Virus record (IMG/VR): IMGVR_UViG_2778261534_000007
Coordinates: 1 to 40,456 of that record
DNA length: 40,456 nt
Origin: a virus
Taxonomy: Duplodnaviria; Heunggongvirae; Uroviricota; Caudoviricetes
Strand: one strand, 5' to 3'
Below, in pieces: positions 1 through 40,456 of the stretch. The translations under genes were made by a program, and so were the position numbers. Each line of letters opens with the position of its first letter. The first letter of the stretch is position 1. Below the pieces are notes generated by a model. That model did no database searches. It saw only the letters and a list, made by a program, of their open reading frames with translations, and was not told where the DNA came from.

Positions 1-1248
1 ATGGCACTGAATATTCCATTCAGAAATGCGTACTATCGTTTTGCATCCAGTTACTCATTTCTCTTTTTTATTTCCTGGTCGCTGTGGTGGTCGTTATACG
101 CTATTTGGCTGAAAGGACATCTAGGGTTGACAGGGACGGAATTAGGTACACTTTATTCGGTCAACCAGTTTACCAGCATTCTATTTATGATGTTCTACGG
201 CATCGTTCAGGATAAACTCGGTCTGAAGAAACCGCTCATCTGGTGTATGAGTTTCATCCTGGTCTTGACCGGACCGTTTATGATTTACGTTTATGAACCG
301 TTACTGCAAAGCAATTTTTCTGTAGGTCTAATTCTGGGGGCGCTATTTTTTGGCTTGGGGTATCTGGCGGGATGCGGTTTGCTTGATAGCTTCACCGAAA
401 AAATGGCGCGAAATTTTCATTTCGAATATGGAACAGCGCGCGCCTGGGGATCTTTTGGCTATGCTATTGGCGCGTTCTTTGCCGGCATATTTTTTAGTAT
501 CAGTCCCCATATCAACTTCTGGTTGGTCTCGCTATTTGGCGCTGTATTTATGATGATCAACATGCGTTTTAAAGATAAGGATCACCAGTGCGTAGCGGCA
601 GATGCGGGAGGGGTAAAAAAAGAGGATTTTATCGCAGTTTTCAAGGATCGAAACTTCTGGGTTTTCGTCATATTTATTGTGGGGACGTGGTCTTTCTATA
701 ACATTTTTGATCAACAACTTTTTCCTGTCTTTTATGCAGGTTTATTCGAATCACACGATGTAGGAACGCGCCTGTATGGTTATCTCAACTCATTCCAGGT
801 GGTACTCGAAGCGCTGTGCATGGCGATTATTCCTTTCTTTGTGAATCGGGTAGGGCCAAAAAATGCATTACTTATCGGAGTTGTGATTATGGCGTTGCGT
901 ATCCTTTCCTGCGCGCTGTTCGTTAACCCCTGGATTATTTCATTAGTGAAGTTGTTACATGCCATTGAGGTTCCACTTTGTGTCATATCCGTCTTCAAAT
1001 ACAGCGTGGCAAACTTTGATAAGCGCCTGTCGTCGACGATCTTTCTGATTGGTTTTCAAATTGCCAGTTCGCTTGGGATTGTGCTGCTTTCAACGCCGAC
1101 TGGGATACTCTTTGACCACGCAGGCTACCAGACAGTTTTCTTCGCAATTTCGGGTATTGTCTGCCTGATGTTGCTATTTGGCATTTTCTTCTTGAGTAAA
1201 AAACGCGAGCAAATAGTTATGGAAACGCCTGTACCTTCAGCAATATAG
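1..1248 (+). CDS. cscB: LacY-family oligosaccharide:H+ symporter (sucrose permease CscB-like), 415 aa
   Basis: Full-length ORF with ATG at base 1; 12-TM hydrophobic profile and LacY-family similarity across the length; N-terminus MALNIPFRNAYYRF matches my recollection of CscB (from memory, unverified). Codon usage is host-like, not phage-like. Confidence 0.8.
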   Translation: MALNIPFRNAYYRFASSYSFLFFISWSLWWSLYAIWLKGHLGLTGTELGTLYSVNQFTSILFMMFYGIVQDKLGLKKPLIWCMSFILVLTGPFMIYVYEPLLQSNFSVGLILGALFFGLGYLAGCGLLDSFTEKMARNFHFEYGTARAWGSFGYAIGAFFAGIFFSISPHINFWLVSLFGAVFMMINMRFKDKDHQCVAADAGGVKKEDFIAVFKDRNFWVFVIFIVGTWSFYNIFDQQLFPVFYAGLFESHDVGTRLYGYLNSFQVVLEALCMAIIPFFVNRVGPKNALLIGVVIMALRILSCALFVNPWIISLVKLLHAIEVPLCVISVFKYSVANFDKRLSSTIFLIGFQIASSLGIVLLSTPTGILFDHAGYQTVFFAISGIVCLMLLFGIFFLSKKREQIVMETPVPSAI

Positions 1249-1997: not shown

Positions 1998-2013
1998 GGA
2001 ATCGAACCTGCAA
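1998..2013 (-). other. 16-nt tRNA-Arg T-arm-derived segment upstream of torI
   Basis: Minus-strand TTGCAGGTTCGATTCC is an exact 16-nt match to the argW T-stem/loop as I recall it; chance occurrence in 40 kb is roughly 1e-5. Confidence 0.5.
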
Positions 2014-3570: not shown

Positions 3571-4096
3571 GGTTAACCTCCTGCGGCGGTTCTGGTAGCG
3601 GCATCCAGTGAGTTATTTCATCGGCAAAGATATCTGAGTTAAGTTCCGTCCAACTATTCCAATACCCAGATTCATCCCACCATTTAACCTCGACATGCTC
3701 TCCGTCGGTCACTAACACATCAGCATACCCTTTCGGCATTCGCTCACTACAGCTTATCCAACCATCCGGAGTTACCGGAGAGTTGCCATTTACATCGAAG
3801 TTTGGCTCTGCGTCCTGAACCAGGAGGATGTAACCATTCTTGGCTGTATCAAGTTCTAACGCCTCGGTGACGGTGCCGAAATAGCGATTACCTAAATCAG
3901 CATCACAAGTGCTTACATCAATGGAAACTTCCATGCCTTCGATTAATTCTGGCAAGTTGTAAGTTTGGCTTACAGGCTCTGCTTCCAGCGATGCCAGCGC
4001 AATCCGTGCCAGTTCCATTTGTTCGCCACGAGTAAGTCCGTTATCAAGCGGATTTTTAATGAATAATTTGATACGTTCTTTGGTTATAGCGCTCAT
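3563..4096 (-). CDS. Phage protein with C-terminal DUF551-like domain (177 aa)
   Basis: C-terminal W-rich segment (VKWWDESGYWNSWTEL...HWMPLPEPP) typical of DUF551 in lambdoid early regions; 4-nt overlap with the upstream gene. Confidence 0.6.
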   Translation of the reverse strand: MSAITKERIKLFIKNPLDNGLTRGEQMELARIALASLEAEPVSQTYNLPELIEGMEVSIDVSTCDADLGNRYFGTVTEALELDTAKNGYILLVQDAEPNFDVNGNSPVTPDGWISCSERMPKGYADVLVTDGEHVEVKWWDESGYWNSWTELNSDIFADEITHWMPLPEPPQEVNRG

Positions 4097-4097
4097 A

Positions 4098-4592
4098 TCA
4101 CTCTCCTTTGGTGCGAATGCCAGTGGTACTCATTCTCCTGATTTCCCAGAGCACACGAGGAATACCACCGTTTCCGACCGGATCGCGTTTACTCCGCAGG
4201 GCGACGCTTGATTCCGCCCAGCTTTTTCTTGGAGGAAGCTCTTTCACACGAACAAAACCAGCTGCGCGAAGAGATGCTCCTGATTCATCTGCCTGGGTGT
4301 ACGTAATACAACGTTGATAACCCATAGCTTTTGCTGCCCGCCAGACAGCACCATAAAGCGCGCTGTTAGCGTTGCGTTCTCCTGTGGTACATGTGCGATT
4401 TACTTCAAGCGTTAATCCATCGTCCAAATGTCGTGCAACAGGTCGACCAGCTGTCGCCACACCTATCAATTCTCCGGCATTATTTCTCAGACCAATGCTG
4501 AATTTATGCCCCACTGGTGGTTTATTGTGTCGGTGGTGCTGTGCGATAAATTCCTGCGCCGCTTTCAGCGTTATAGGTGAAATGACCATCAC
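4098..4592 (-). CDS. Hypothetical early-left accessory protein, 164 aa
   Basis: ORF translationally coupled to neighbours; family not recognised by inspection. Confidence 0.55.
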   Translation of the reverse strand: MMVISPITLKAAQEFIAQHHRHNKPPVGHKFSIGLRNNAGELIGVATAGRPVARHLDDGLTLEVNRTCTTGERNANSALYGAVWRAAKAMGYQRCITYTQADESGASLRAAGFVRVKELPPRKSWAESSVALRSKRDPVGNGGIPRVLWEIRRMSTTGIRTKGE

Positions 4593-5194
4593 TCAGACTC
4601 CTCCTTGATGCCAGCGGCGCGCTCGGCTTCACTTTGTTCCCAAAACCACTTGTGAAGCGCCATAAGCTTTTCGTCAATCGGTGCATATTTGCGATTAAAG
4701 TAGGCCTGAGCATCTTTCTCAGATTCGTCCGGTAATTCGCCAGGGCCAAACAGTGTGTTATAAATCCATGCCAGTCCGCTCTTAGCGTCGCCAGTTGCCT
4801 GCCATTCGATAATGGCAGCCTGCATGACCAGAATGTTTTTCCCGATTAATAGGTCCAGTTCTTTGTACCGGTTGCGGATGTATGCATTCTCGCTTTGTAA
4901 TTCAGCGTTTCGCTTCTCTGCTGCTTCCAGCTCATCCAGCAGCGCCAAGACGGTAGCCGGATTGGCTGCGGCGATGAATTCAGCATTGGCCTGCTGTTCC
5001 ATTTGGAAATCTTCATCGAAACCGCTTTCAGGATGCGCTCCTTCAATTCTGCAAATGGGAATATATCCAGCAACTTCACGATGAATTAGCGCATCATCAC
5101 CATCAAATCGGCCCTCTCCATATTCGAGCGACCACACACCACACGTTGCTTTTTCTGCCTTGGCACGCAGTACCTGATAGTCAATCTTGCTCAC
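4589..5194 (-). CDS. Ead/Ea22-like coiled-coil phage protein
   Basis: Central heptad/coiled-coil segment ([30 protein letters not shown]); likely GTG start at 5194 preceded by AAGGAGG. Confidence 0.55.
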
Positions 5195-5700: not shown

Positions 5701-6189
5701 TTATTTGATAAGAAGTGAAGGTTTCCCAACTTTGAGTTGAGCACCGGGGATATTTATTCCTGCTTTTAGTTGGTGTTTGATTGCCAGTTTGTCGGCTTTA
5801 ATTGTCGTTTCAAACTCAACGTATTCAGGAGGAAGGGCGCTTGAGTCGATGATTTCTACAGTTTCTGACGGTTTGCGGATTGTTACCTGGTGAATACCTG
5901 CTCTAATCTTTTTCTTGCCAACCATTTCAAGCGATGAGGCTATATATGCCATAATGCTATCAATCTTATTTTGAATTACTGCTGCTCGTTCATTCAGTGA
6001 CTTTGCCTCGTCCTTGAGGCGTTCAGCATAACCAGATTCATTTTTAATAATGGCAAGAAGTTGCTCTATTTTATCGGTAAATTCTCCTTCCATGCCTTCT
6101 ATTGTGTCAGCAATCATCTCTGGTTCTAAATCTGAATCCATCAATTTTGCGTATTCATTGGCAATTTCATATAGTTTGCTCACTGGCAA
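5701..6189 (-). CDS. Recombination-associated protein, siphovirus Gp157-like (162 aa)
   Basis: Immediately downstream of and overlapping recT; acidic helical N-terminus; Gp157-family assignment is by resemblance and synteny. Confidence 0.5.
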   Translation of the reverse strand: MPVSKLYEIANEYAKLMDSDLEPEMIADTIEGMEGEFTDKIEQLLAIIKNESGYAERLKDEAKSLNERAAVIQNKIDSIMAYIASSLEMVGKKKIRAGIHQVTIRKPSETVEIIDSSALPPEYVEFETTIKADKLAIKHQLKAGINIPGAQLKVGKPSLLIK

Positions 6190-7069
6190 CCTCCAGTTTC
6201 GCTTTGCATTCTATGTAAATGGCTTGTATGTTCTGCTGCAATTTCATTCCAGATGTCAGGCGATATGCTTCTGCAAAATATCTCTTCAAATCATCCATGT
6301 TTTCAGACTGAGCCATTTCATCACAAAGAAGTTGTGCTTTATCCGTTATTTCCTGCTGGCGTTTCCGTTCATCTTCGCGGATATCTTCCTCTGATTTGTG
6401 CGGCATAACTGGTTCCTGATGCATACCTTCATCTTCGTTAAGCAGGTGAATGGCATTATCCAGTCGCTGGGCTTTAGGCCAGTATTTGCTGGCGCGTTTA
6501 ACTATTGTTTTACGCGCCATCTCTTCCCAGAATGTCTTCCACGGTCCATTCTTTGCCTTGCTCGTTGCTTCCACAGCTTTAATTTCTGCCAGACTCATTT
6601 CTTCAGTGAGGTAGTCACCATCTGCTGTTTTAACCGTACAATAACCACCAACAATAGAGCCTCGCTCACCAAATGCGTTGTATTTGTGGGTTGGTGCTGA
6701 ATCAAGGCCGTTTGATTCATAGGTGTCGTTTGAGTACACCAGTTTGCATTGCCCCCACTTAATTGATCCTGTCGATTGCGCAAGATGAAGTAATCCCATG
6801 TAACTGATATCAAGGCAAACCATGCCGTCGCGAGGAACCAGATAAGCCAGTTTGCTGGCCGGGTTTAAGGTGATGCCGATCGCCGCAACATTGATGATGG
6901 CGTTCTGTGCGCTGGTTGGATTTGCCAGTGCCGTTTTAGCCAGGTAATCATTTTTCTGGAAATACTGAATTGCAAACTGGCTTTCCTTAGCCCATGTCAC
7001 CGTCTGTTCAGTCAATGCTCCGCAGAATAACTGCTCCTGCTGTTTAACGAATTCAACGATATTGCTCAT
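6167..7069 (-). CDS. recT: RecT-family single-strand annealing recombinase (300 aa)
   Basis: RecT-family similarity across the length (NVAAIGITLNPASKLAYLVPRDG...); located in the position of lambda bet. Confidence 0.8.
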   Translation of the reverse strand: MSNIVEFVKQQEQLFCGALTEQTVTWAKESQFAIQYFQKNDYLAKTALANPTSAQNAIINVAAIGITLNPASKLAYLVPRDGMVCLDISYMGLLHLAQSTGSIKWGQCKLVYSNDTYESNGLDSAPTHKYNAFGERGSIVGGYCTVKTADGDYLTEEMSLAEIKAVEATSKAKNGPWKTFWEEMARKTIVKRASKYWPKAQRLDNAIHLLNEDEGMHQEPVMPHKSEEDIREDERKRQQEITDKAQLLCDEMAQSENMDDLKRYFAEAYRLTSGMKLQQNIQAIYIECKAKLEVASEQTI

Positions 7070-7377
7070 GCAGCTTCTCCAAAAATGTGTCTGCGTTTAA
7101 ATATTGCGAAGGCATATTCAGCCTTAACTCTTTCGGTTATTGCATCCCAGAACCATTCAGCGGCTTTTTCCTGATAGTTACAGTCATCATCTTCCAGCCA
7201 GTCGATAGCGTCCTTAGTGTGTTCATCTGGTTTATATGAGCGAAGCATTTCGCTTATTGGGTCGCAACGTTTGCAGAGGCGATCAACTTCACTGTTAATT
7301 CGTTCGTAATCTTCATCAGTAAAACTTGCGATTATTTGCGATATTTCACGCTTATCATTCAGAGTCAGAATCATCAT
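7066..7377 (-). CDS. Hypothetical acidic phage protein upstream of recT (103 aa)
   Basis: ORF overlapping the recT start by 4 nt; acidic, Trp-rich; no family recognised. Confidence 0.5.
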   Translation of the reverse strand: MMILTLNDKREISQIIASFTDEDYERINSEVDRLCKRCDPISEMLRSYKPDEHTKDAIDWLEDDDCNYQEKAAEWFWDAITERVKAEYAFAIFKRRHIFGEAA

Positions 7378-7458
7378 CTTTCTCCTGTTCTTTGTGCTGA
7401 TTGAGCATTTTGTTCATCTGACGAATGAATTCTTCGTCTGACCAGTTATCTGTAAAAC

Positions 7459-7581
7459 TCATTTCCTGCGATACCACGGAAGGTTGATAGCTGATTTCAT
7501 CGCTTTATTTGCTTCAAGCCACATTTTTGAATCACCAATAAATCTGGCTATTACTGCTTTGTTTTGTGCCGCACGAAGCAT
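7459..7581 (-). CDS. Kil-like small protein (40 aa), below the ORF-track cutoff
   Basis: ATG 14 nt after the cIII stop; translation MLRAAQNKAVIARFIGDSKMW... resembles my recollection of lambda Kil (IATFIGDEKM). Confidence 0.4.
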   Translation of the reverse strand: MLRAAQNKAVIARFIGDSKMWLEANKAMKSAINLPWYRRK

Positions 7582-7595
7582 CTGGTGATTAATGG

Positions 7596-7730
7596 CTATT
7601 TCATTGCGCATAACGCCTCCAGTTGTTTCTTTGCTGCTCTAATTAATTGTTTAACTCGGCGTGATAATTCAGATTCGTGCGGGTAGAAAGCGGACATGAC
7701 GCCGCTACCCGCGAGCTGAAAGTGCATCAT
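7596..7730 (-). CDS. cIII: cIII-like protease inhibitor (44 aa)
   Basis: MMHFQLAGSGVMSAFYPHESELSRRVKQLIRAAKKQLEAL resembles lambdoid cIII; AAGGAG RBS before the ATG at 7730. The longer listed ORF (to 7835) runs through a terminator hairpin and is rejected. Confidence 0.7.
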   Translation of the reverse strand: MMHFQLAGSGVMSAFYPHESELSRRVKQLIRAAKKQLEALCAMK

Positions 7731-7793
7731 GGGTAACTCCTTATATTTGATTGCATAACGAAAACGCCTCGAGTGAAGCGTTATTGGTATGCA

Positions 7794-7820
7794 TATAAAA
7801 AGGCCCTCACACTGGAGGGC
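7794..7820 (-). terminator. Intrinsic terminator (tL1-like) between the 156-aa gene and cIII
   Basis: Minus-strand hairpin GCCCTC-CAGTGT-GAGGGC followed by CTTTTTAT. Confidence 0.5.
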
Positions 7821-7924
7821 AAAGAAGATTTTCAATAATCAGAACAAGTCGGCTCCTGTTTAGTTACGAGCGACATTGCTCCGTGTATTCACTCGTTGGA
7901 ATGAATACACAGTGCTTATTTGTA

Positions 7925-8395
7925 CTAATAAAATACCCAATTTTCTGTTTCTTGGTTGTGTCCAAAGTTATATTCAATATCTGGTGTTGATGTATCAATA
8001 TTCTTCATCCCATCAACAAGAGTTGATACAACAGCCAAATCTTGTTTGATTCTCATTAAATGGTATTTCTTCCGGCGCAATAAACTTTCAATGGCAAGTT
8101 TCTTCGTTGGGAATGCAAAAGATCTTTCTGCATTTTTTGCTACTTTCTTAATTGCATATCTATTTCTCTTTTGTTTCCATTCCTGTAACCACTGATTTGG
8201 TGCTGGTTTAAAATTAACAATCCAATGCGCAGGAACCAACCATGCATAATGCTCTGTCTGATGAAAAGCTATATATTGAAGTGCGAATATTTTGATTCCA
8301 TCTTCTTCAACTGTCGCCTGGAATCTCCAGAAAACAGGCATTCCATCATGTTCAGTTTCTGATTCAGGAAAAGGTACGCTCCATGATTTTGTCAT
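7925..8395 (-). CDS. Hypothetical AT-rich accessory protein (156 aa) in the N-cIII (sieB/ral) slot
   Basis: ORF with markedly lower GC than the flanking N and cIII genes; followed by a 9-bp-stem inverted repeat (7883..7910); no family recognised. Confidence 0.6.
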   Translation of the reverse strand: MTKSWSVPFPESETEHDGMPVFWRFQATVEEDGIKIFALQYIAFHQTEHYAWLVPAHWIVNFKPAPNQWLQEWKQKRNRYAIKKVAKNAERSFAFPTKKLAIESLLRRKKYHLMRIKQDLAVVSTLVDGMKNIDTSTPDIEYNFGHNQETENWVFY

Positions 8396-8403
8396 ATCTC
8401 ACC

Positions 8404-8730
8404 TCAAATAAGTGGCTTGCTGCCTAATTTCATTTTCTGGCGACCAACACAAGTCACACCCATTTCACTGCGTGGCTTGCTGTACCATGTGCGCTGATTC
8501 TTGCGCTCAATACGTTGCAGGTTGCTTTCAATCTGTTCGTGGTATTCAGCCAGCACCGTAAGGTCTATCGGATTCAGTGCGCTTTCTACTCGTGATTTCG
8601 GTTTGCGATTCAGCGAGAGAATTGGGCGGTTAACTGGTTTTGCGCTTACCCCAACCAACAGGGGATTTGCTGCTTTCCATTGAGCCTGTTTAGCTGCGCG
8701 GCGTTCGCGGCGGCGTGTTTGTGCATCCAT
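8404..8730 (-). CDS. N: Antitermination protein N (lambda-type)
   Basis: Near-identity to lambda N as recalled (MDAQTRRRERRA.KQAQWKAANPLLVGVSAKPVNRPILSLNRKPKSRVESALNPIDLTVLAEYH...). Confidence 0.9.
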   Translation of the reverse strand: MDAQTRRRERRAAKQAQWKAANPLLVGVSAKPVNRPILSLNRKPKSRVESALNPIDLTVLAEYHEQIESNLQRIERKNQRTWYSKPRSEMGVTCVGRQKMKLGSKPLI

Positions 8731-8998
8731 CTGGATTCTCCTGTCAGTTAGCTTTGGTGGTGTGGTGGCTGGTAGTCTAGCTCCAGCTTGTTGAGTCTCA
8801 TTCGGAGGGGTATAACCGGCACCCCAGCGATTTTTCCATGCGACAACGTGCGCGTTATGGCGGCCTTATCGCCCGCGGCTCCCCATCTCGTCCACGCTAT
8901 TGCTAGCGTTGGGAGCGCTTCACCGCTCAACAGTAGGTAAGCACTTGCCAGTGACTAGCTGGCTTCACCACACACCAAAGCCTTCTGCTTTGAATGCT

Positions 8999-9029
8999 GC
9001 CCTTCTTCAGGGCTTAATTTTTAAGAGCG
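8999..9029 (-). promoter_or_regulatory. nutL (boxA CGCTCTTAA + boxB GCCCTGAAGAAGGGC)
   Basis: Reverse complement reads CGCTCTTAAAAATTAAGCCCTGAAGAAGGGC, the lambda nutL sequence; boxB at 8999..9013, boxA at 9021..9029. Confidence 0.8.
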
Positions 9030-9068
9030 TCACCTTCATGGTGGTTAGTGCGTCCTGCTGATGGCTAA

Positions 9069-9097
9069 ATAGTACGATTTGTACTTTATCGAGTCAA
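9069..9097 (-). promoter_or_regulatory. PL-like early leftward promoter (-35 TTGACT, 17-bp spacer, -10 TACTAT) with flanking operator-like TTTGTA/TACAAA repeats
   Basis: Sigma70 consensus-like hexamers with 17-bp spacing upstream of nutL on the minus strand. Confidence 0.55.
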
Positions 9098-9160
9098 TAC
9101 AAAATGTTCTAAATATAATTAGTTTTTTATAACGTTTTGTATTTAATGGGTTTATAATTT

Positions 9161-9190
9161 GGAAAAAGAAAACCCGACGCTAAGGTCGGG
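9161..9190 (-). terminator. Intrinsic terminator downstream of cI
   Basis: Minus-strand hairpin CCCGAC-CTTAGC-GTCGGG followed by TTTTCTTTTTCC. Confidence 0.55.
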
Positions 9191-9222
9191 TTATTGTTGT
9201 GTGTTTTAGAGTGGTGAGGCTG

Positions 9223-9882
9223 TTAACTAAATGTCTCTTCAGGCCACTGGCTGGCGATAACTTTCCCTACTACGGAACAGCTATCATTGCATGGAATCAT
9301 TGGATATTGCGGGTTTAGTGGCTGTAGGAACACCTGACCGCTATCCCTGATCAGTTTCTTGAAGGTAAACTCGTCACCACCAAGTCTGGCTATGCAGAAA
9401 TCACCTGGCTCAACAGCCTGCTCGGGGTCAACGAGAATTAACATCCCGTCAGGAAAGCTTGGCTTCGATCCTGTTGGCGCGGTCATGGAATTACCTTCAA
9501 CTTCAAGCCAAAACGCACAATCACTGGCTTTTTTGGTTGTGCTTACCCATCTCTCCGCATCACCTTTGGTAAAGGTTCTAAGCTCAGGCGAGAACATCCC
9601 GGCCTGAACATGAGAAAAAACAGGGTACTCATATTGTTTTTTAACGGGGGCAGATGAGTATTCGCCAACAGGTGAAAATGTACCGTCGTGGTTGAATGAG
9701 ACGTTATCAATACCAAGGTATTTAAACACCACACCAATCTCGTCAAGAGATGGATGACGAGATCCGCGCAACCAGTGACCAATTCCACCCTGCGTCATAC
9801 CAAGCTCTTCAGCTAACTTCTCTTGAGTTATGCCGAGCTCTTTCATTCTGGATCTAGCCAGTTCATACCATTTCATTTTCAT
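9223..9882 (-). CDS. cI: CI-type prophage repressor (HTH N-domain plus LexA/S24-like autocleavage C-domain)
   Basis: C-terminal ~150 aa match lambda cI as recalled ([22 protein letters not shown]...[48 protein letters not shown]...); N-terminal HTH ([23 protein letters not shown]) differs from lambda. Start at 9882 or 9876; the listed ORF start (9924) is a TTG extension. Confidence 0.85.
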
Positions 9883-9938
9883 ACCCTTATTATTACGCTC
9901 TGTACTAAAACCATCCATGCACAAGATGTATTTTTTGT

Positions 9939-9967
9939 TTGCATTCTAAAAGTACATATCGTATTAT
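9939..9967 (+). promoter_or_regulatory. PR-like promoter (-35 TTGCAT, 17 bp, -10 TATTAT) within the cI-cro operator region
   Basis: Consensus-like hexamers 27 nt upstream of the cro ATG; GTAC-containing operator-like repeats nearby. Confidence 0.5.
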
Positions 9968-9993
9968 TGTTTCATGGTTACTATGGAGGGCAT

Positions 9994-10209
9994 ATGAGCA
10001 ACCTACGAAAATATCGAGAGTCACTGAATATCTCTCAAACAACACTTGCTAAGGCAGTTGGATGCACACAGGGAGCTATCGGACATTGGGAATCTGGTCG
10101 TCGCTTCCCAGACCTTAAAACATGCCGTGCTCTTGTTGAGTGCCTAAACAAGTTAGGCGCAAAAGTCAGTCTTGATGACGTGTTCCCGCCGGAACACAAA
10201 GCCGCTTAA
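9994..10209 (+). CDS. cro: Cro-like HTH repressor (71 aa)
   Basis: Small HTH protein (ISQTTLAKAVGCTQGAIGHWESG) divergent from cI; GGAGGG RBS; the listed ORF from 9823 is a TTG-initiated extension. Confidence 0.75.
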   Translation: MSNLRKYRESLNISQTTLAKAVGCTQGAIGHWESGRRFPDLKTCRALVECLNKLGAKVSLDDVFPPEHKAA

Positions 10210-10217
10210 GACATTCC

Positions 10218-10249
10218 CGCTCTTACACATCCCAGCCCTGAAAAAGGGC
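10218..10249 (+). promoter_or_regulatory. nutR (boxA CGCTCTTAC + boxB GCCCTGAAAAAGGGC)
   Basis: Matches the lambda nutR boxA/boxB consensus directly downstream of cro. Confidence 0.8.
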
Positions 10250-10325
10250 ATTACCAGAAACAAATCTCTATGGTTTTGCGTTTCTTTGCGAAGCCAACTC
10301 TATCTAATCATTAAGGAAATTATCT

Positions 10326-10607
10326 ATGGGTACTATTGCAACTAAAAGCAAGAAAGCGGCTCGCATCGAGTCAGCCTTGCTGAACAAACTGGCACTGATG
10401 GGGCAGAAGACATTCGCTCGAGCGATGGGGGTTCCTGAATATCAGGTAAGCCGATGGAAGAATGGTTTCTTCTCGCAGGTAAGCATGATGCTTGCTGTTC
10501 TGGAATACGGAATCGAAGACGATGAAATGGCTGAATTGACTAAGCGGCTTGCCGATTACCTGACAAAAGAAAAAGCCCCGAAGAACGGCGAATTCTTCGA
10601 GGCCTGA
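10326..10607 (+). CDS. cII: CII-like transcriptional activator (93 aa)
   Basis: Similarity to lambda cII as recalled (RIESALLNK.A..G......A.GV...Q.SRWK......S.LAVLE.G..DD.MA.L). Confidence 0.8.
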   Translation: MGTIATKSKKAARIESALLNKLALMGQKTFARAMGVPEYQVSRWKNGFFSQVSMMLAVLEYGIEDDEMAELTKRLADYLTKEKAPKNGEFFEA

Positions 10608-10641
10608 TGTAGAAAGACTGGATCAATCCACAGGAGTAATT

Positions 10642-11286
10642 ATGACATACGAAAATGACAAATTCCAGGTTCTGAAGAGCATGAAGGTGCCAGATGATTT
10701 TAAATCAAATGGCTTTGTTTATGTGCTTTCGAATGAGTGCATGCCGGGAATTTATAAGATTGGGATGACTAAGCATTCACCAGAAGTTAGGGCTAAAGAA
10801 ATTTCAGCCTCTACTGGCGTTCCTAAGCCATTTAAGGTGATAGCAGCCTTTCATTCAAATAATCCCGCATCAGATGAAAAACTTATTCATAAAGCCTTTG
10901 CAAAAGAGAGGCTTAGTGATAATCGAGAGTTTTTCAAGCTTGAAGATAATGATCTTTATGAATCTCTAAATGAAATAAGGGCGCTGGTTGGCCCTGAAAG
11001 AAATGGCGAGACGGCAGAATACGCAATTTACGACTCATTCATTTCTTTTCGCCATGAAAATGAGCTTGATCTTAATGAGGAGCTTATAGAGCAAGGTCTG
11101 GGTAGTGTAGTTGGTCATCTTCCTGCGGTGAAAAATTTCCTTATTCGCGCCGGAATTGATTACGCGAAGCAACTGATAAGCAAATATAACTCATCGATAG
11201 TTATTAATACAGATGGCAGTGTGGTGATGGTTAAGTCTCTTGAAGCCCAATGCTTTGATGCGGAGGTTGGAAATGAGCCTTGCTGA
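10642..11286 (+). CDS. T5orf172 / GIY-YIG-like domain protein (214 aa), inserted between cII and O
   Basis: N-terminal motif GFVYVLSNECMPGIYKIGMT (GIY...YIG-like spacing) with a downstream conserved Arg and acidic residues; AGGAG RBS; more AT-rich than its neighbours; 3' end overlaps the O start by 14 nt. Confidence 0.6.
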   Translation: MTYENDKFQVLKSMKVPDDFKSNGFVYVLSNECMPGIYKIGMTKHSPEVRAKEISASTGVPKPFKVIAAFHSNNPASDEKLIHKAFAKERLSDNREFFKLEDNDLYESLNEIRALVGPERNGETAEYAIYDSFISFRHENELDLNEELIEQGLGSVVGHLPAVKNFLIRAGIDYAKQLISKYNSSIVINTDGSVVMVKSLEAQCFDAEVGNEPC

Positions 11287-34842: not shown

Positions 34843-35328
34843 TTATCTTATGTTACTGCTACTGTTGCATGTGACTGTATTTCCAAACCCTGAATTGCAG
34901 TTTGTGTAAGTGTCAACGCGTGTTGGATAGGGTTGAGTTATAACAGGCTGTCTCGCTTTTTGCTCGATCGCTTGCATTGTGTTTACAGCCTGATAATTCA
35001 ATAAAGCCTGCTGGAATGCTTGGCTTTGTGCTATTTGTTGGGCTTGTTCTTGGCTTTGTAATTGAACATAAAGATTCTGAAGCTCAAGTCTTGCCTGTGC
35101 GTCACTTATCTTGCCTTCATCGACACCTTGCCCGAGCATCTTTGCAGCAAGGACATACAGCTTAGGTGTTGGTGCTGATGCCATGCGTGAGTCGTTCTTC
35201 ACACTGGCATCAAGGCAATTAGCCATATCGCTAAGCTTTTGATAGCGTTGTTCGCAACTTGCTTGATAGTCACTTACTTTTGCGCATCCAACCAGCAGAA
35301 GCGGGATAATTAACAGTAATTTTTTCAT
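34843..35328 (-). CDS. Phage-encoded lipoprotein (161 aa) in the immI/sieA slot
   Basis: AAGGAGAG RBS; signal peptide with lipobox MKKLLLIIPLLLVGC; Gln-rich helical region; Cys-containing C-terminus; the listed ORF start (35364) is an extension. Confidence 0.7.
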   Translation of the reverse strand: MKKLLLIIPLLLVGCAKVSDYQASCEQRYQKLSDMANCLDASVKNDSRMASAPTPKLYVLAAKMLGQGVDEGKISDAQARLELQNLYVQLQSQEQAQQIAQSQAFQQALLNYQAVNTMQAIEQKARQPVITQPYPTRVDTYTNCNSGFGNTVTCNSSSNIR

Positions 35329-35398
35329 ATGGTTAACTCTCCTTAGTTTTTCACAGGATAGCATGAAGGCAATGCCATTTTAGCCGGAAACTAGATTT

Positions 35399-35698
35399 CT
35401 ATGTTTCCTTTTTATTATTGCTATACATGGTCTTAAGCGTTTCAAAAACCATTTTCTTAACCATATCAGATTGTTGTTCTGCCATACGCTCTGCATCGTC
35501 AATGTAAACGGATGCAGAGCTTTGTTTAGCCAACGATTCTTCAATCGCTGCAATTATCTCTGAGTTCAGCGATCTGTTATTCATCTTCGCACGCTGCTTA
35601 ATTTTCGCGTGGAGTTCATGCGGAAGTCTCAAGTGAAACTGCGCCTCATCGTATTTGCTGTACATCCTTGATGCCTCACCAGTTGGGTGGAATGGCAT
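35399..35698 (-). CDS. mnt: Mnt-like ribbon-helix-helix repressor
   Basis: RHH N-terminus (FHLRLPHELHAKIKQRAKMNNRSLNSEI); C-terminus DAERMAEQQSDMVKKMVFETLKTMY resembles P22 Mnt as recalled; start may be at 35665 (MYSKYD). Confidence 0.7.
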   Translation of the reverse strand: MPFHPTGEASRMYSKYDEAQFHLRLPHELHAKIKQRAKMNNRSLNSEIIAAIEESLAKQSSASVYIDDAERMAEQQSDMVKKMVFETLKTMYSNNKKET

Positions 35699-35786
35699 CG
35701 TAACCTACTGGATAAATACTCAATAGTACCATTTCGGTATGCAATCACATCATGGTTGCATCATATCATTCGTCTGGAGCAATGAA

Positions 35787-38024
35787 ATGTCAGATATCAC
35801 CGCAAATGTTGTGGTAAGCATGCCTTCGCAACTCTTCACTATGGCGCGTTCTTTTAAAGCGGTTGCCAATGGCAAAATTTATATCGGAAAAATTGACACT
35901 GACCCGGTAAATCCTGAAAACCAGATTCAGGTTTATGTAGAGAATGAAGACGGTTCTCACGTTCCTGTTTCGCAACCAATCATCATTAACGCTGCTGGAT
36001 ATCCGGTATATAACGGACAGATTGCCAAATTCGTTACCGTGCAAGGCCATTCGATGGCTGTTTATGATGCGTATGGTGCGCAGCAGTTCTATTTTCCGAA
36101 TGTTCTTAAATATGATCCTGATCAGCTTAAAGTATCTCTATCAGGGAAAGACGGTCTTAAATACATCGGGACATGCCCTGATATAGCAATGTTAAGGACA
36201 ATTGAGCCTGAGCGAGATCAGCAAAAGATTTTCGTCGACTTCCACACTACAGGCATGAAGCCTACAGTATCAGGTGATACTGGTGGTGGTCTGTTTGTGT
36301 CAGATTTCACAGATTCTACTTCTGCAGATGATAACGGCATGGTCATTGTCACTGCGGGTGGTAAACGCTGGAAACGTGATCTTCAAGGTAAGGGGTATGT
36401 AACACCACGTATGTTTGGTGCGTGGATGGATGCTCCATATATTGACTGGAATACTATTCAGGCCACAGGGTATCCTAGAGCGCCAAGCATGGGTGGCGTC
36501 GATTTAACAGGAGTAACAAATGATGGATTAGCACTTAATAAAGCTTATCTAACTAAGCTTCCTGTTTTCATAGACCAGCCCATATATATGGGTAACACTC
36601 AAATTGACATTAGCCAGTTTAGATGGGAAGGGATTAGTCTAAATCTATATGGGATTAATCCACAAAAAAGTATTGTTTATACATCAGGAAGTGGTGGTTT
36701 TGTTATGGGAAGTTGGGGGCACAATCTTAAAGTAAAGAATATGTGTTTTCGCAACGCTGACGATGAATATTCAGGTAGCCCATTGGTCATTTCTGGTCAA
36801 ACACAAACTTTTGGCGGTGGTAGTGAATATGATATTAAAAATAACATATTTCTACATTATAAATTTGCACTTCCCTTATCATGCTTTGTCAGTAATGTTA
36901 CAAACAACCAAGCATATGATTGTATCTATGGTTTCGGTTTGGCTGGCACATCTACTACATTCTCTTCCAACTGGGCAAGGCATTGTGACTACGGATATCT
37001 GTGGGGCGCGGCTATTGATAGAACAACATATGATCCGGTGAACAGTCCTTACCCATTGATGTATGTTAAGGCCACAAATATCGCGTCGGATGGATGTAAA
37101 TTACCACATAAGTTCTATCAATTTAGATCTTTAAGTATTGATGGTCTAGGTATTGAGGGTGTCACAGGAGATCATTGCTTAGATTTTACAGATATAGTTC
37201 AGCAGGATGCTACTTCGCTAATGGAGTTGTCAAATATCTCATGCAATCTTAAGGAAGACAATTCGGTAGGTGTGACGCACTTCATATCATTGCCAACTAA
37301 TGAACAGAATGGACCAACACAAGTTAGGATATTATCTGGATATGTTCGGGCATACAAAGGGATTACCATTCTTAAGAATACATCTGACGAGTCAAGCCAG
37401 TATCAATGCCGTGGGTTTGATATTTGTGATGGGTTCAAATTCATAAAGCAAACAAGCGGTAGTTCTATCGCTGATGACTACGTTAGAGGGAGTAAATATC
37501 ATTCAAGATTCTATGGTGAACATACAGGTATTGGTTATCAGACAGGCTCTAATGGCACTAAACTTTCAGCATTACATCAGGCATCAAATGCAGTATATCC
37601 ACAAGTTATTACAGAGAACGGTACAATACTCATGCCTTATGGGAGGGCTCTCGATATTCTTATAGCAACAGATGGAGAGGAATCGTATTATACTGGTGGT
37701 GTTTTTATTGCCGGTGAGATAAGTATAATTCCTATTAACCAAAATGGATTGGGAGGGGTTAACGAAAATGGAGGGGTTATTTTATTTAGCGTTTCAGCTA
37801 AAGATCAAGCAACGTTATTATCATCAAAAGTTTGGGTAAATAAAATTACAGGAGACAAGCTATTAAATAATGTAGTGGTTTCCAAGTACAACAATGGAAG
37901 CCAAACAATACTAAGGATAAACTTCGCAACAGCAACCATCTCTCAAGCCATATTGCATATTACACTAACCTCACAAGGTCGGATGCATTACTATGATAAG
38001 AGATGGAAAATTGTAACTCCGTGA
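35787..38024 (+). CDS. Tailspike protein: P22-type N-terminal head-binding domain plus divergent beta-helix receptor-binding domain
   Basis: Residues 1-~115 match the P22 gp9 N-domain as recalled ([11 protein letters not shown]...F...[35 protein letters not shown]...VLKYDPDQ); the remainder diverges and is AT-rich; GGAG RBS. Confidence 0.85.
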
Positions 38025-38031
38025 TCACCAC

Positions 38032-38051
38032 CCCCCCATGTAAAATGGGGG
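38032..38051 (+). terminator. Hairpin terminator between the convergent tailspike and acyltransferase genes
   Basis: Hairpin CCCCCA-TGTAAAA-TGGGGG followed by an AT-rich run. Confidence 0.45.
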
Positions 38052-38055
38052 ATAT

Positions 38056-39054
38056 TTATATTAAATGTTTTGTTATTTTATTCTTTGATAGTAAATAACA
38101 AATTAAAGCTGAAATTGCGAAATATATTATGGTGAGTACAGGTATCATATACCATGCATTAACAGGACTGTAGCCAAACTTTATCTCTCTGACTAATATA
38201 AAATGTATGAAATAGATACCAAAAGATAGTCCTGAAATTGTCCTTATAAAGGAAAGCACATGATCAGATACACGATCCTTAACTGAAATGCAAAACATGA
38301 ACGTGAAGATAGCACTTGCAAAAACAAATGGAGCAGTATTTTTAAAGAAAAGCTGTTCCGGCCTACCAACCTTGCTGGACCACCATATTGTAGCTAAAAC
38401 AGTAGCCACGCTAAAGAAGACAACAAGCAGGAAATAAATTATCCAACTAATAGTTGAAATTCTGTCTCTATATCTTCTTAGTATAGCGCCAACAAGAATG
38501 TATATGCCATTCTCTGAAATAAAATCCAACTTAAGCCATGTAAGGCTAAACATTGTTCTGTGAATGTACGGAACGAGTGAGTGAACGTAAAACAACATCG
38601 CTATTATCATCAGTATATAATACGATGGCAAATTCTTAAGTGGATTACTTATTATTGGTAAAAACATATACATGCAAATATATGTATACATAAACCATAA
38701 ATGGACCTCTGAATGTTGAAATAATGACGATATTTTAAGTCCGTTATAGTGATTATTATATAAAAAATAAAACAGCCACCAAAACATAAAAGGAATAAAG
38801 AGTTTTCTAACCCCTTTTGCTAAATGATTTGAAGCCTCTATCTCCTTTTTATAATAAAGGTATCCTGTTATTATAAAGAATAACCCAATACATTGTCGTG
38901 TAAATGAACTATACGTTGTTATAGTATTCCATGAGTCGCTGAATGCAAGGAAGTAAGCTCCTGACGCATGTAACATAACCACAAGAAAGATAGCTAAACT
39001 TCTTGCTATATGCACTTCATTTAACTCTATTCTATTTTGTCGAATATCAGACAT
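38056..39054 (-). CDS. Integral-membrane acyltransferase (acyltransferase-3 family; O-antigen acetylase Oac-like), 332 aa
   Basis: About 10 predicted TM helices; N-terminal motif RSLAIFLVVMLHA typical of the acyltransferase-3 family; very AT-rich; located between tailspike and integrase, where seroconversion genes sit in P22-like phages. Confidence 0.75.
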   Translation of the reverse strand: MSDIRQNRIELNEVHIARSLAIFLVVMLHASGAYFLAFSDSWNTITTYSSFTRQCIGLFFIITGYLYYKKEIEASNHLAKGVRKLFIPFMFWWLFYFLYNNHYNGLKISSLFQHSEVHLWFMYTYICMYMFLPIISNPLKNLPSYYILMIIAMLFYVHSLVPYIHRTMFSLTWLKLDFISENGIYILVGAILRRYRDRISTISWIIYFLLVVFFSVATVLATIWWSSKVGRPEQLFFKNTAPFVFASAIFTFMFCISVKDRVSDHVLSFIRTISGLSFGIYFIHFILVREIKFGYSPVNAWYMIPVLTIIYFAISALICYLLSKNKITKHLI

Positions 39055-39298
39055 TACGCACCCACCACAATTTTATTTGTATGATTTATATGCTTTTAAA
39101 TTTAAGATTATTTTGTCCTTTTTCTATCACGTAACCATGAGCGAGATGATACTTAAAAAAACAGTGCTGCGAATTTATTCTATCATCCAAGGCTCCATCG
39201 ATCGATACTTGCGGTAGTTGATGAGGAAAAGCTATGGTACACAAAGCTTTGCACTGGATTGCAAGGTTTTGTTTCTATCAGATAGTGGTTAAGCTGGA

Positions 39299-40456
39299 TC
39301 ACTCCACCTTTTCATCAATCCAGTCCGCCCACCACTGCATCATTTCTCTGCGCTTATCGAGATACTGAGCATGGTTGTAAATCCCGCGCACAGAACCGCC
39401 GTTGGCATGTGCCAGTTGCACTTCAATAGCATCAGCAGGCCATTCGTGCTCGTTCATAATCGTGCTGAATTCATGCCTGAATCCGTGACCGCTTTCCAGA
39501 CCCTCATAGCCGATTTGTTTGATCACAAGCAGTACCGCGTTCTCGCAGATTGGCTTCTTCTTATCGTTGCGACCGGCAAAAACAAACTCTGATACTGGTT
39601 TGGTGATTGAGCTTAGCGTAGTGAGAAGTTCAACCACCTGGTCTGACATAGGAACCACATGAATTTTGCGTCCCTTCATCACACTGGCGTCGATGGTGAT
39701 AATCCTGTTTTCAAAATCGACGTTCTTCCATAGCATAGAACGAAGCTCTTTTGTTCTGAGGGCTGTGTAGCGTAAAACTTTGGTCGCAATGAGCGATACG
39801 ATGCTTCCTGAAAATGTTGCCAGTGCTTTGTTAAATGCCGGGATCTGGTCTGCAGGAAGAAACGGGAAGTTTTTCTTGCGGTATCCCTTCATGGCGTCAG
39901 CAAGGTCAGGTGCCGGGTTATATTTAGCCCTACCAGTGACAATAGCGTAACGGAAAACCTCGCCGCATCTTCTGCGTGCTTTGTTGGCTCGCTCCATTGC
40001 CCCGCGATCTTCAAATCTGCGGATTACTTCCAGCAGTTGCATCGGCTCAATATCCTGAATTTCAAGGCCGCCGATGATAGGTAAAATGTCGTCATCAAAC
40101 ATTTTTGCAAGTTCAGTCGCATAGGCGGCTGACCAGACTTGCTTCTTGTGCTCGTACCATTCCTTGTAAATCGCACTAAAGGAATTGTTGTTAGACGAAG
40201 CCTTTTTCGCCTTTACCGGATCGATGCCAACCGAGATGTCTTTCCTCGCAGTCCATGCCTTATCCCTTGCCTCCTGCAAAGTCATAAGCGGATATTTTCC
40301 GACGGTCAGGATTTTCTCCTTACCGTCAATCTTGTAGCGAAGCTGCCATACCTTTTTCCCTGATACAGGAACATAAAGGTACAGGCCATTACCATCGAGA
40401 AGGCGGTATGGTTTTTCTTTCGGCTTTGCTGCCTCAATCTGCTTAACGGTGAGCAT
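39299..40456 (-). CDS. intS: Tyrosine site-specific integrase (P4/IntS family), 385 aa
   Basis: SAM-like and catalytic domains (R...HGFRHEFSTIM...Y region); start codon is the last base of the window, so the promoter and attL/argW lie outside. Confidence 0.9.
   Translation of the reverse strand: MLTVKQIEAAKPKEKPYRLLDGNGLYLYVPVSGKKVWQLRYKIDGKEKILTVGKYPLMTLQEARDKAWTARKDISVGIDPVKAKKASSNNNSFSAIYKEWYEHKKQVWSAAYATELAKMFDDDILPIIGGLEIQDIEPMQLLEVIRRFEDRGAMERANKARRRCGEVFRYAIVTGRAKYNPAPDLADAMKGYRKKNFPFLPADQIPAFNKALATFSGSIVSLIATKVLRYTALRTKELRSMLWKNVDFENRIITIDASVMKGRKIHVVPMSDQVVELLTTLSSITKPVSEFVFAGRNDKKKPICENAVLLVIKQIGYEGLESGHGFRHEFSTIMNEHEWPADAIEVQLAHANGGSVRGIYNHAQYLDKRREMMQWWADWIDEKVE

Follow-up and report, generated by a model that had tools for sequence, protein, structure and literature searches.

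The right end of the P22-like prophage contained in virus record IMGVR_UViG_2778261534_000007 (positions 1 to 40,456, the whole stretch of DNA that was analyzed and is here called the window) is a receptor and conversion module of the Sf6 type, in which a tailspike gene is followed by a convergent conversion gene of the acyltransferase-3 (AT3) family, by the integrase gene int, and by argW, the site of integration. The best explanation of this module, and a likely one, is that the tailspike cuts its receptor, an O32/O83-type O-antigen of Escherichia coli, and that the AT3 protein acylates the same O-antigen and so masks it from the phage. The initial annotation of this DNA had proposed both a distinct O-antigen receptor and lysogenic conversion of the host; the proposal is supported in silico, and is strengthened by comparisons of gene linkage, of the rates of nonsynonymous and synonymous substitution (dN and dS), and of host serogroups.

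In the proposed mechanism (Table 1), the head-binding adaptor would plug the tailspike into a P22-type tail, and the β-helix of the virion tailspike would bind and cleave an O32/O83-type O-antigen (probably O32 for the allele in the window), with specificity determined by the distal half of the β-helix. The AT3 protein would be expressed from the prophage, presumably via its own promoter, and would use its R-X10-H site to carry an acyl group (presumably acetyl, with acetyl-CoA as donor) through the inner membrane and attach it, at the periplasmic face, to the O-antigen that the tailspike recognizes. This tailspike would act poorly on the acylated O-antigen, so that the lysogen would be protected from superinfection by the phage and its relatives, and the serological epitope of the lysogen would change. 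We infer that the O-antigen is the substrate, that acetyl is the group added, and that the modification blocks adsorption. Re-infection is blocked through O-acetylation by Oac of Sf6 and Oac of phiV10, and OafB of BTP1 is a further precedent for modification of the O-antigen by a phage (PMC9558356).

The tailspike gene (open reading frame 35787-38024, + strand) encodes 745 amino acids. The first ATG of the open reading frame is at 35739; the start at 35787 is preferred because it is preceded by a GGAG ribosome-binding site and gives an N-terminus like those of the P22, Sf6 and HK620 tailspikes. The P22-type capsid-binding domain that the initial annotation had assigned to the N-terminus is Pfam Head_binding (PF09008), which spans residues 1-113 (E 5.6e-67), and the N-terminal domains of Sf6 gp14 and P22 gp9 in the PDB also match (E 1e-64 to 1e-45). 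Its DNA is 87-97% identical to the 5' ends of the tailspike genes of Sf101, IME10, HK620, CUS-3 and Sf6, and megablast also matches the segment in 1,285 of 5,426 complete E. coli genomes. The megablast matches all end at ~36125-36132 (residue ~115), right after the sequence YDPDQ; the tailspike is chimeric at this junction, as had been claimed, and is more mosaic than first described, with extra junctions at residue ~217 (~36437) and residue ~400 (~36990). Residues 118-213 match 6w4q and the N-terminal domains of CBA120 TSP2 (5w6p) and WceF (6tgf) with E values of 1e-10 to 1e-15, and the tailspike of E. coli strain mip270_04 has ~96% DNA identity over 35700-36437, up to residue ~217, beyond which protein identity is 34-48%. 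The tailspike DNA of the related locus in strain 22KM0354 (L002) is 93-100% identical to that of the window until ~36990 and ~60% identical after it. The tailspike is a four-part mosaic.

Past residue ~115, the tailspike body matched no phage record by megablast. Its best protein identity is ~50%, to Kagunaviruses EC3-1 and NRG857CP3, the large myoviruses YX22 and fGh-Ecl02, and TH16/TH20, and these homologues bear other adaptors at the N-terminus (PF18668 or PF03906 in the protein database; Kagunavirus, Kuttervirus or T7-type N-termini). The divergent, AT-rich β-helix body described in the initial annotation is borne out by an AlphaFold2 model of residues 115-745, a right-handed parallel β-helix with a predicted local distance difference test score (pLDDT) of 84 and a predicted template modeling score (pTM) of 0.82, and by the low G+C content of the C-terminal half given below. 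Foldseek matches the body to solved tailspike depolymerases (E 1e-13 to 1e-6, probability 1.0), including those of Acinetobacter phages AM24 and P1, CBA120 TSP2, K2 depolymerases, WceF and the Sf6 tailspike. A motif near the C-terminus, HYYDKRW, is invariant across the tailspike family, in whose alignment there are also invariant acidic residues. The endoglycosidase activity of the tailspike on the host O-antigen is putative. Compared with the homologues of lytic phages, residues 401-600 have 35-44% identity and residues 218-400 have 54-60%; the family varies most over residues ~401-745, which would form the tailspike side of a co-swapped cassette that is described below. The body is present in two of the 5,426 complete E. 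coli genomes, and distant blastn searches with the body and the cassette find two to three carriers among them. Between the two closest alleles, those of the window and of one carrier, strain 573 (L001), the distal half of the tailspike gene (36990-38024) has dN 0.015 and dS 0.018, a ratio of 0.86, and the codons of residues 1-400 have dN 0.005 and dS 0.097, a ratio of 0.055, a contrast based on small counts that may point to relaxed or diversifying selection where the tailspike determines specificity.

The convergent gene downstream had been called an acyltransferase of the AT3 family with about ten transmembrane helices, and both statements hold. The match to Pfam Acyl_transf_3 (PF01757 / IPR002656) reaches 121.2 bits (cut-off 31; E 6.5e-35) and covers positions 3-325 of the 326-position profile, and the protein also matches PHROG 3333 (O-acetyltransferase). 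Its AlphaFold2 model has ten long helices (pTM 0.80) in keeping with some ten hydrophobic segments in the sequence, and the sole confident fold neighbor of the model in the PDB is human HGSNAT, an acetyl-CoA-dependent transmembrane acetyltransferase; a search of PDB sequences with a profile made from the AT3 alignment gave no match to solved AT3 structures. The R/K-X10-H motif in the first transmembrane helix is a feature of the AT3 family (PMC9558356), and here R18-X10-H29 is invariant in an alignment of eight sequences that includes relatives of 25-27% identity. The AT3-SGNH type was considered and rejected, as the protein has no SGNH domain; it has a single Pfam domain and no eleventh helix. 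With dN/dS of 0.10-0.13 across alleles, the acyltransferase lineage is under purifying selection. The very low G+C content that had been put at about 30% is 31.8% when measured, compared to 38.4% in the C-terminal half of the tailspike gene, 42.7% in the head-binding part, 48.0% in int and 47.6% elsewhere in the window; in the O-antigen clusters of O32 and O83, the stretch from wzx to the glycosyltransferases has 30%. The gene lies next to int at the position of oac in Sf6, the slot in which P22-like phages had been said to carry O-antigen modification genes. The stop codons of the tailspike and AT3 genes are 31 bp apart with a hairpin between them, which is not kept in all alleles: in 22KM0354 the two genes abut without a spacer. 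The 244-bp spacer upstream of the AT3 gene contains one GATC (39200), and so there is no signature of Dam/OxyR phase variation. Coordinates, domains, fold, G+C content and slot were all checked, and every element of the original observation is real.

The acyltransferase is linked to the tailspike body wherever its relatives are found. In a database of 5.8 billion proteins, relatives at least 50% identical to it form six clusters (P0001-P0006, with 99, 85, 80, 69, 55 and 50% identity), the next match below them is 27% identical, and a search of one genome per species found no relative above 32% identity. At all loci of these six alleles, a homologue of the window's tailspike body is encoded convergent to the AT3 gene. 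The contexts include P22-like prophages at argW, the P22-like prophage of 22KM0354 near bio/ybhB, a contig whose other flank has lysis genes (L003), two loci with gtrABC inserted between the tailspike and AT3 genes (L005, L006), one with a tailspike of 515 amino acids that has no head-binding domain (L007), and a different P22-like backbone with the same cassette and int at 98.7% identity (L113); an identical AT3 protein is present, with intact open reading frames, in four further contigs. Pairs of alleles that differ more in the tailspike body (residues 268-744) also differ more in the AT3 protein (r = 0.88 for the pairwise identities). In 22KM0354, the DNA that is ~60% identical to the window is a block of ~2 kb with sharp junctions, from ~36990 to ~39000 (AT3 codon ~18), flanked on both sides by DNA that is 96-100% identical, and the AT3 genes of L003, L004 and L005 have a different N-terminus, eight codons longer, which joins at ELNEVH. 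Since the tailspike and the AT3 protein have to suit one glycan and are encoded side by side, their genes would be passed on, exchanged and diversified together, as a "cut it, then mask it" cassette that recombination would swap at conserved sites within the two genes. That the distal half of the tailspike and the AT3 protein form such a co-specificity cassette of ~2 kb, swapped as a block, with alleles that track O32 versus O83, is a possibility to which somewhat less than an even chance is given. If it is true, the allelic series listed above is a series of matched depolymerase/AT3 pairs, which could be used to map the determinants of substrate recognition in stand-alone AT3 enzymes.

The same linkage would be seen if the AT3 gene were a hitch-hiking moron that changes the O-antigen for the benefit of the host (immune or serum evasion, or resistance to other phages) and is not matched to the tailspike, co-divergence being due to adjacency, since any neighboring genes enclosed by the same hot spots of recombination will diverge in a correlated way. 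A benefit at the level of the host is also suggested by a prophage remnant in mip270_04, which keeps its AT3 gene and gtrABC after loss of the tailspike. This explanation is nevertheless judged unlikely: the AT3 lineage is never seen without a homologous tailspike, Sf6 and phiV10 are direct precedents for self-exclusion, and at least three unrelated AT3 lineages occupy the slot beside related tailspike bodies. The recurrence of an acyltransferase beside the depolymerase argues for selection on the pairing. Among other P22-like prophages at argW with related tailspike bodies, one (L102) encodes a body 69% identical to that of the window followed in the same slot by an AT3-SGNH protein of 611 amino acids that is OafA/OafB-like (7001-11103), and another, the full prophage of mip270_04 (L107, O32), has a different tailspike and an AT3 protein of 349 amino acids in the slot. 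A homologue of the tailspike body in a lytic-type genome has no acyltransferase beside it.

The remnant in mip270_04 (L117, 887980-904726) is riddled with insertion sequences and contains an intact AT3 gene (~70% DNA identity), gtrA, gtrB and gtrC, and a tailspike gene split by IS3. As mip270_04 bears both this remnant and the full prophage L107, one O-antigen could carry several layered modifications of phage origin. The nearest AT3 relative outside E. coli (32% identity) is encoded in a Pseudescherichia metagenome-assembled genome (L020, 5013-6008, + strand), next to a second AT3 gene (3963-4964, + strand) and a convergent gene for a pectate-lyase-like β-helix protein of 523 amino acids (6054-7625, - strand). 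The neighbors of these genes are ordinary chromosomal genes (GGDEF, AI-2E transporter, fimbrial), and so the pairing of AT3 with a β-helix protein apparently occurs without a phage.

Three of the 5,426 complete E. coli genomes contain members of the family, and the O-antigen genes of all three are of two related types. Strain 573, with a cassette of the window type (97.7% identical), has wzx and wzy of O32; 22KM0354, with a cassette of the 55% type, has wzx and wzy of O83; and mip270_04, with the remnant of the ~70% type, has wzy of O32. Among the 5,426 genomes, wzy of O32 occurs in 9 and wzy of O83 in 35, together 44 (0.8%), so that the chance of finding three carriers out of three among them is (44/5426)^3, or ~5e-7, if relatedness is ignored. 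Gene order is the same in the O-antigen clusters of O32 and O83, which are homologous and whose proteins share 31-56% identity. The O32-type and O83-type alleles of the cassette have AT3 proteins that are 55% identical and distal tailspike halves that are far more diverged than the first 400 residues (~98%), and the divergence between the two clusters is comparable to that between the two alleles. The carrier's O83 wzy and the wzy of strain NRG 857C (O83:H1) have 99.9% identity. Kagunavirus NRG857CP3 is named after this strain and, to judge by the name, was isolated on it; its tailspike body is 49.7% identical to that of the window. Lytic homologues such as this one differ by 2-4 percentage points in their identity to the O83-type and O32-type distal halves. 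The repeat unit of O83 was reportedly described by Jann et al. in 1994 (cited in PMC7685785). In NZ_CP118997.1 (2325173-2326383), a wzy gene 99.8% identical to that of O32 is annotated as "O83 family O-antigen polymerase", which looks like an annotation inconsistency because the Wzy proteins of O32 and O83 are only 43% identical.

These host serogroups bear on whether the AT3 protein modifies some other glycan (enterobacterial common antigen, capsule or colanic acid, or peptidoglycan), with a tailspike that targets that glycan or an unrelated one. The structural neighbors of the tailspike body found by Foldseek are mostly capsule depolymerases, and the P22-like phage CUS-3 pairs a tailspike that is capsule-specific according to its record with a capsule O-acetyltransferase. 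Proteins that consist of AT3 only include WecH, which acts on enterobacterial common antigen, IcaC, which acts on poly-N-acetylglucosamine, and exopolysaccharide acylases (PMC9558356). Another target is nonetheless improbable, given that all three carriers have O32 or O83 clusters, which are related and make up so small a fraction of complete genomes, that the tailspike and AT3 alleles of O32 and O83 hosts differ about as much as the O-antigen clusters do, and that receptor-binding domains are known to go with particular O serogroups in Lederbergvirus prophages (PMC10408124). A capsule target or a system like that of NeuO was considered in particular and judged unlikely.

Several points weigh against the explanation that the tailspike and the AT3 protein share an O32/O83-type O-antigen. 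Correlated divergence is expected of any tightly linked genes and is no proof of functional matching. Only three genomes make up the serogroup association, and two of them may be related; GCA_002512005.1 stands outside the count because its contig stops short of the O-antigen cluster. The structure of the O32 O-antigen and its state of acetylation were not found in the searchable literature. AT3 proteins also acylate enterobacterial common antigen, capsules, exopolysaccharides and peptidoglycan (PMC9558356), and the substrate is not transferable by homology because the AT3 protein does not align with Oac of Sf6 by BLASTP and shares only 27.6% identity with that of phiV10. The RXXR motif in the first cytoplasmic loop, which was defined on OacA of Sf6, has no clear counterpart: the loop after the second transmembrane helix has K80-G-V-R83-K84, the relatives have KGFNK, KGFHK or KGVSR at this variable place, and there is no reliable alignment to Oac. 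Upstream of the AT3 gene there are weak sigma-70-like sites at 39173-39146 and 39099-39070, but the sites found by the promoter scan are no more numerous than in shuffled sequences, and so no promoter is claimed.

The failure of the predicted promoters to exceed chance, together with the reduction of immI to an Mnt-like gene, could also mean that the module is inactive, belonging to a decaying prophage in which the tailspike and AT3 genes are no longer expressed. This is very improbable: both open reading frames are intact here and in the four contigs with an identical AT3 protein, dN/dS is ~0.1 with the catalytic residues conserved, and the P22-like virion, lysis and regulatory genes are complete.

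Table 1. Coordinates of the tailspike, the acyltransferase gene and other features of the window
Feature	Coordinates	Strand	Basis or remark
Tailspike residues 1-114, P22-type head-binding (virion adaptor) domain	35787-36128	+	Pfam PF09008
Tailspike residues ~115-217, neck / N-terminal domain of the receptor-binding part, independently exchanged	36129-36437	+	
Tailspike residues ~218-400, first half of the parallel β-helix	36438-36989	+	AlphaFold2 model, Foldseek
Tailspike residues ~401-745, second half of the β-helix and C-terminal domain	36990-38024	+	
Candidate terminator, GC-rich hairpin CCCCCAT-gtaaa-ATGGGGG	38033-38051		7 pairs, 5 GC (terminator scan)
Stand-alone AT3-only membrane protein, 332 amino acids, putative O-antigen O-acyltransferase / lysogenic conversion gene	38056-39054	-	
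Region upstream of the AT3 gene, expected place of its promoter	39055-39298	-	
IntS-type tyrosine integrase (int)	39299-40456	-	Pfam Phage_integrase, Phage_int_M, Arm-DNA-bind_3; start codon at the last base of the window
LacY-family sugar symporter gene, chromosomal left end	1-1248	+	Pfam E 1e-193
Probable attR core, other end of the prophage	1998-2013		16-bp exact copy of the 3' part of argW (blastn-short against the argW side of L112)

The window is a complete P22-like (Lederbergvirus) prophage at argW of E. coli. Its virion genes share ~96% identity with phage IME10 (coverage 61%), homologues of the ejection proteins gp7, gp20 and gp16 are encoded upstream of the tailspike, and the P22-like set of virion, lysis and regulatory genes is full. 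The argW gene (attL) lies ~160 bp past the end of the window; in contig NMHU01000014.1 of GCA_002512005.1 (L112), int is followed by argW, yfdC, mlaA, yfdF and fadL, and the order int, tRNA-Arg, yfdC is also present in strain 573. The attP core annotated in Sf6 is likewise 16 bp long. The symporter gene at the left end may be the csc sucrose permease gene that some E. coli carry near argW. Neither Rfam families nor tRNA genes turned up in scans of the window. A gene at 34843-35364 (- strand), which lies between mnt and the gene for the gp16-type ejection protein, encodes a predicted lipoprotein of 161-173 amino acids with a MKKLLLIIPLLLVGC lipobox, which matches PHROG 6067 (function unknown; E 2e-109) and has no Pfam match; it occupies what we take to be the place of sieA in P22, and is a candidate for a second moron that excludes superinfecting phages or modifies the surface. 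The immI region contains one Arc/Mnt-like repressor gene only (35399-35698, - strand), with no arc and no ant, both of which are kept in L113, with the same cassette, and in L102, with the related tailspike. In the early-left region, the gene at 4098-4592 (- strand) has a weak, sub-threshold Pfam match to the Mom protein family (E 3e-5; 24 bits, cut-off 27).

The arrangement of such modules and the principle behind them, the exchange of tailspike domains between phage genera, and the link to O serogroup are well established. What is new is the AT3 lineage, a tailspike body with probable O32/O83 specificity, and the evidence for exchange of the distal tailspike half and AT3 gene as a block; as the principle is established from Sf6, phiV10, P22 and BTP1, these results extend rather than change known biology. 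If the explanation given here is right, the prophage gives its E. coli host an altered O-antigen (O32 or a related one), a change to which gene-based serotyping would be blind and by which phage susceptibility and antigenicity would be altered, and the tailspike body is an uncharacterized depolymerase of the O32/O83 type with possible uses in typing or in the engineering of host range. A series of linked alleles set against two homologous O-antigen clusters would make acceptor choice by stand-alone AT3 enzymes tractable, as well as the co-evolution of receptor recognition and receptor masking.

Among known systems, CUS-3 is a P22-like prophage with an endosialidase tailspike, the head-binding domain of which has ~92% DNA identity to that of the window, and it couples a glycan-specific tailspike with NeuO, which O-acetylates the glycan in question, the K1 capsule. 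NeuO is a hexapeptide-repeat enzyme of the cytoplasm, and repeats make it phase-variable, whereas the gene in the window encodes a membrane AT3 protein and no repeats were seen in it. The serogroup-specific tailspike domains of E. coli (PMC10408124) combine a conserved genus anchor with an exchanged β-helix, as in the window, and have been exchanged between Lederberg-, Kaguna-, Kutter- and other viruses; that study describes no O32 or O83 subtype, gives O83 only for an unrelated promiscuous protein, and mentions a modification gene behind the receptor-binding protein as a caveat only. The best characterized phage homologue of the AT3 protein is Oac of phiV10, a Uetakevirus, which acetylates the O157 O-antigen and is 27.6% identical over 95% of the length; phiV10 differs from the window in phage genus, tailspike and O-antigen. 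P22 (gtrABC) and BTP1 (GtrC and OafB, an AT3-SGNH protein) have O-antigen modification genes beside the tailspike and att site, as in the window, and these conversion genes block the phage's own tailspike (PMC9558356). Unlike the OafB and gtr systems, the AT3 gene of the window has neither the SGNH domain and eleventh helix nor the Dam/OxyR GATC signature. The closest likeness in arrangement is to Sf6, also P22-like and at argW, in which the tailspike gene (+ strand), a terminator, the gene for Oac of 333 amino acids (- strand), its promoter, int (- strand) and attP follow one another, the terminator and oac promoter being annotated at places equivalent to the hairpin and to the AT3 upstream spacer of the window. 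The head-binding domain of Sf6 is 87% identical in DNA, but the body of its tailspike, an endorhamnosidase of 623 amino acids, is unlike that of the window in sequence and alike only at the level of fold, and its Oac gives a BLASTP match of 49 residues (E 0.003) with no alignment beyond an FF..SGY motif. The label of oac orthologue was rejected on account of this motif-level match; the AT3 protein of the window is Oac-like by position and family, with a putative activity, but belongs to a separate AT3 lineage. The receptor of Sf6 is the rhamnose backbone of the S. flexneri O-antigen, whereas that of the phage in the window is likely an O-antigen of the O32/O83 type of E. coli.

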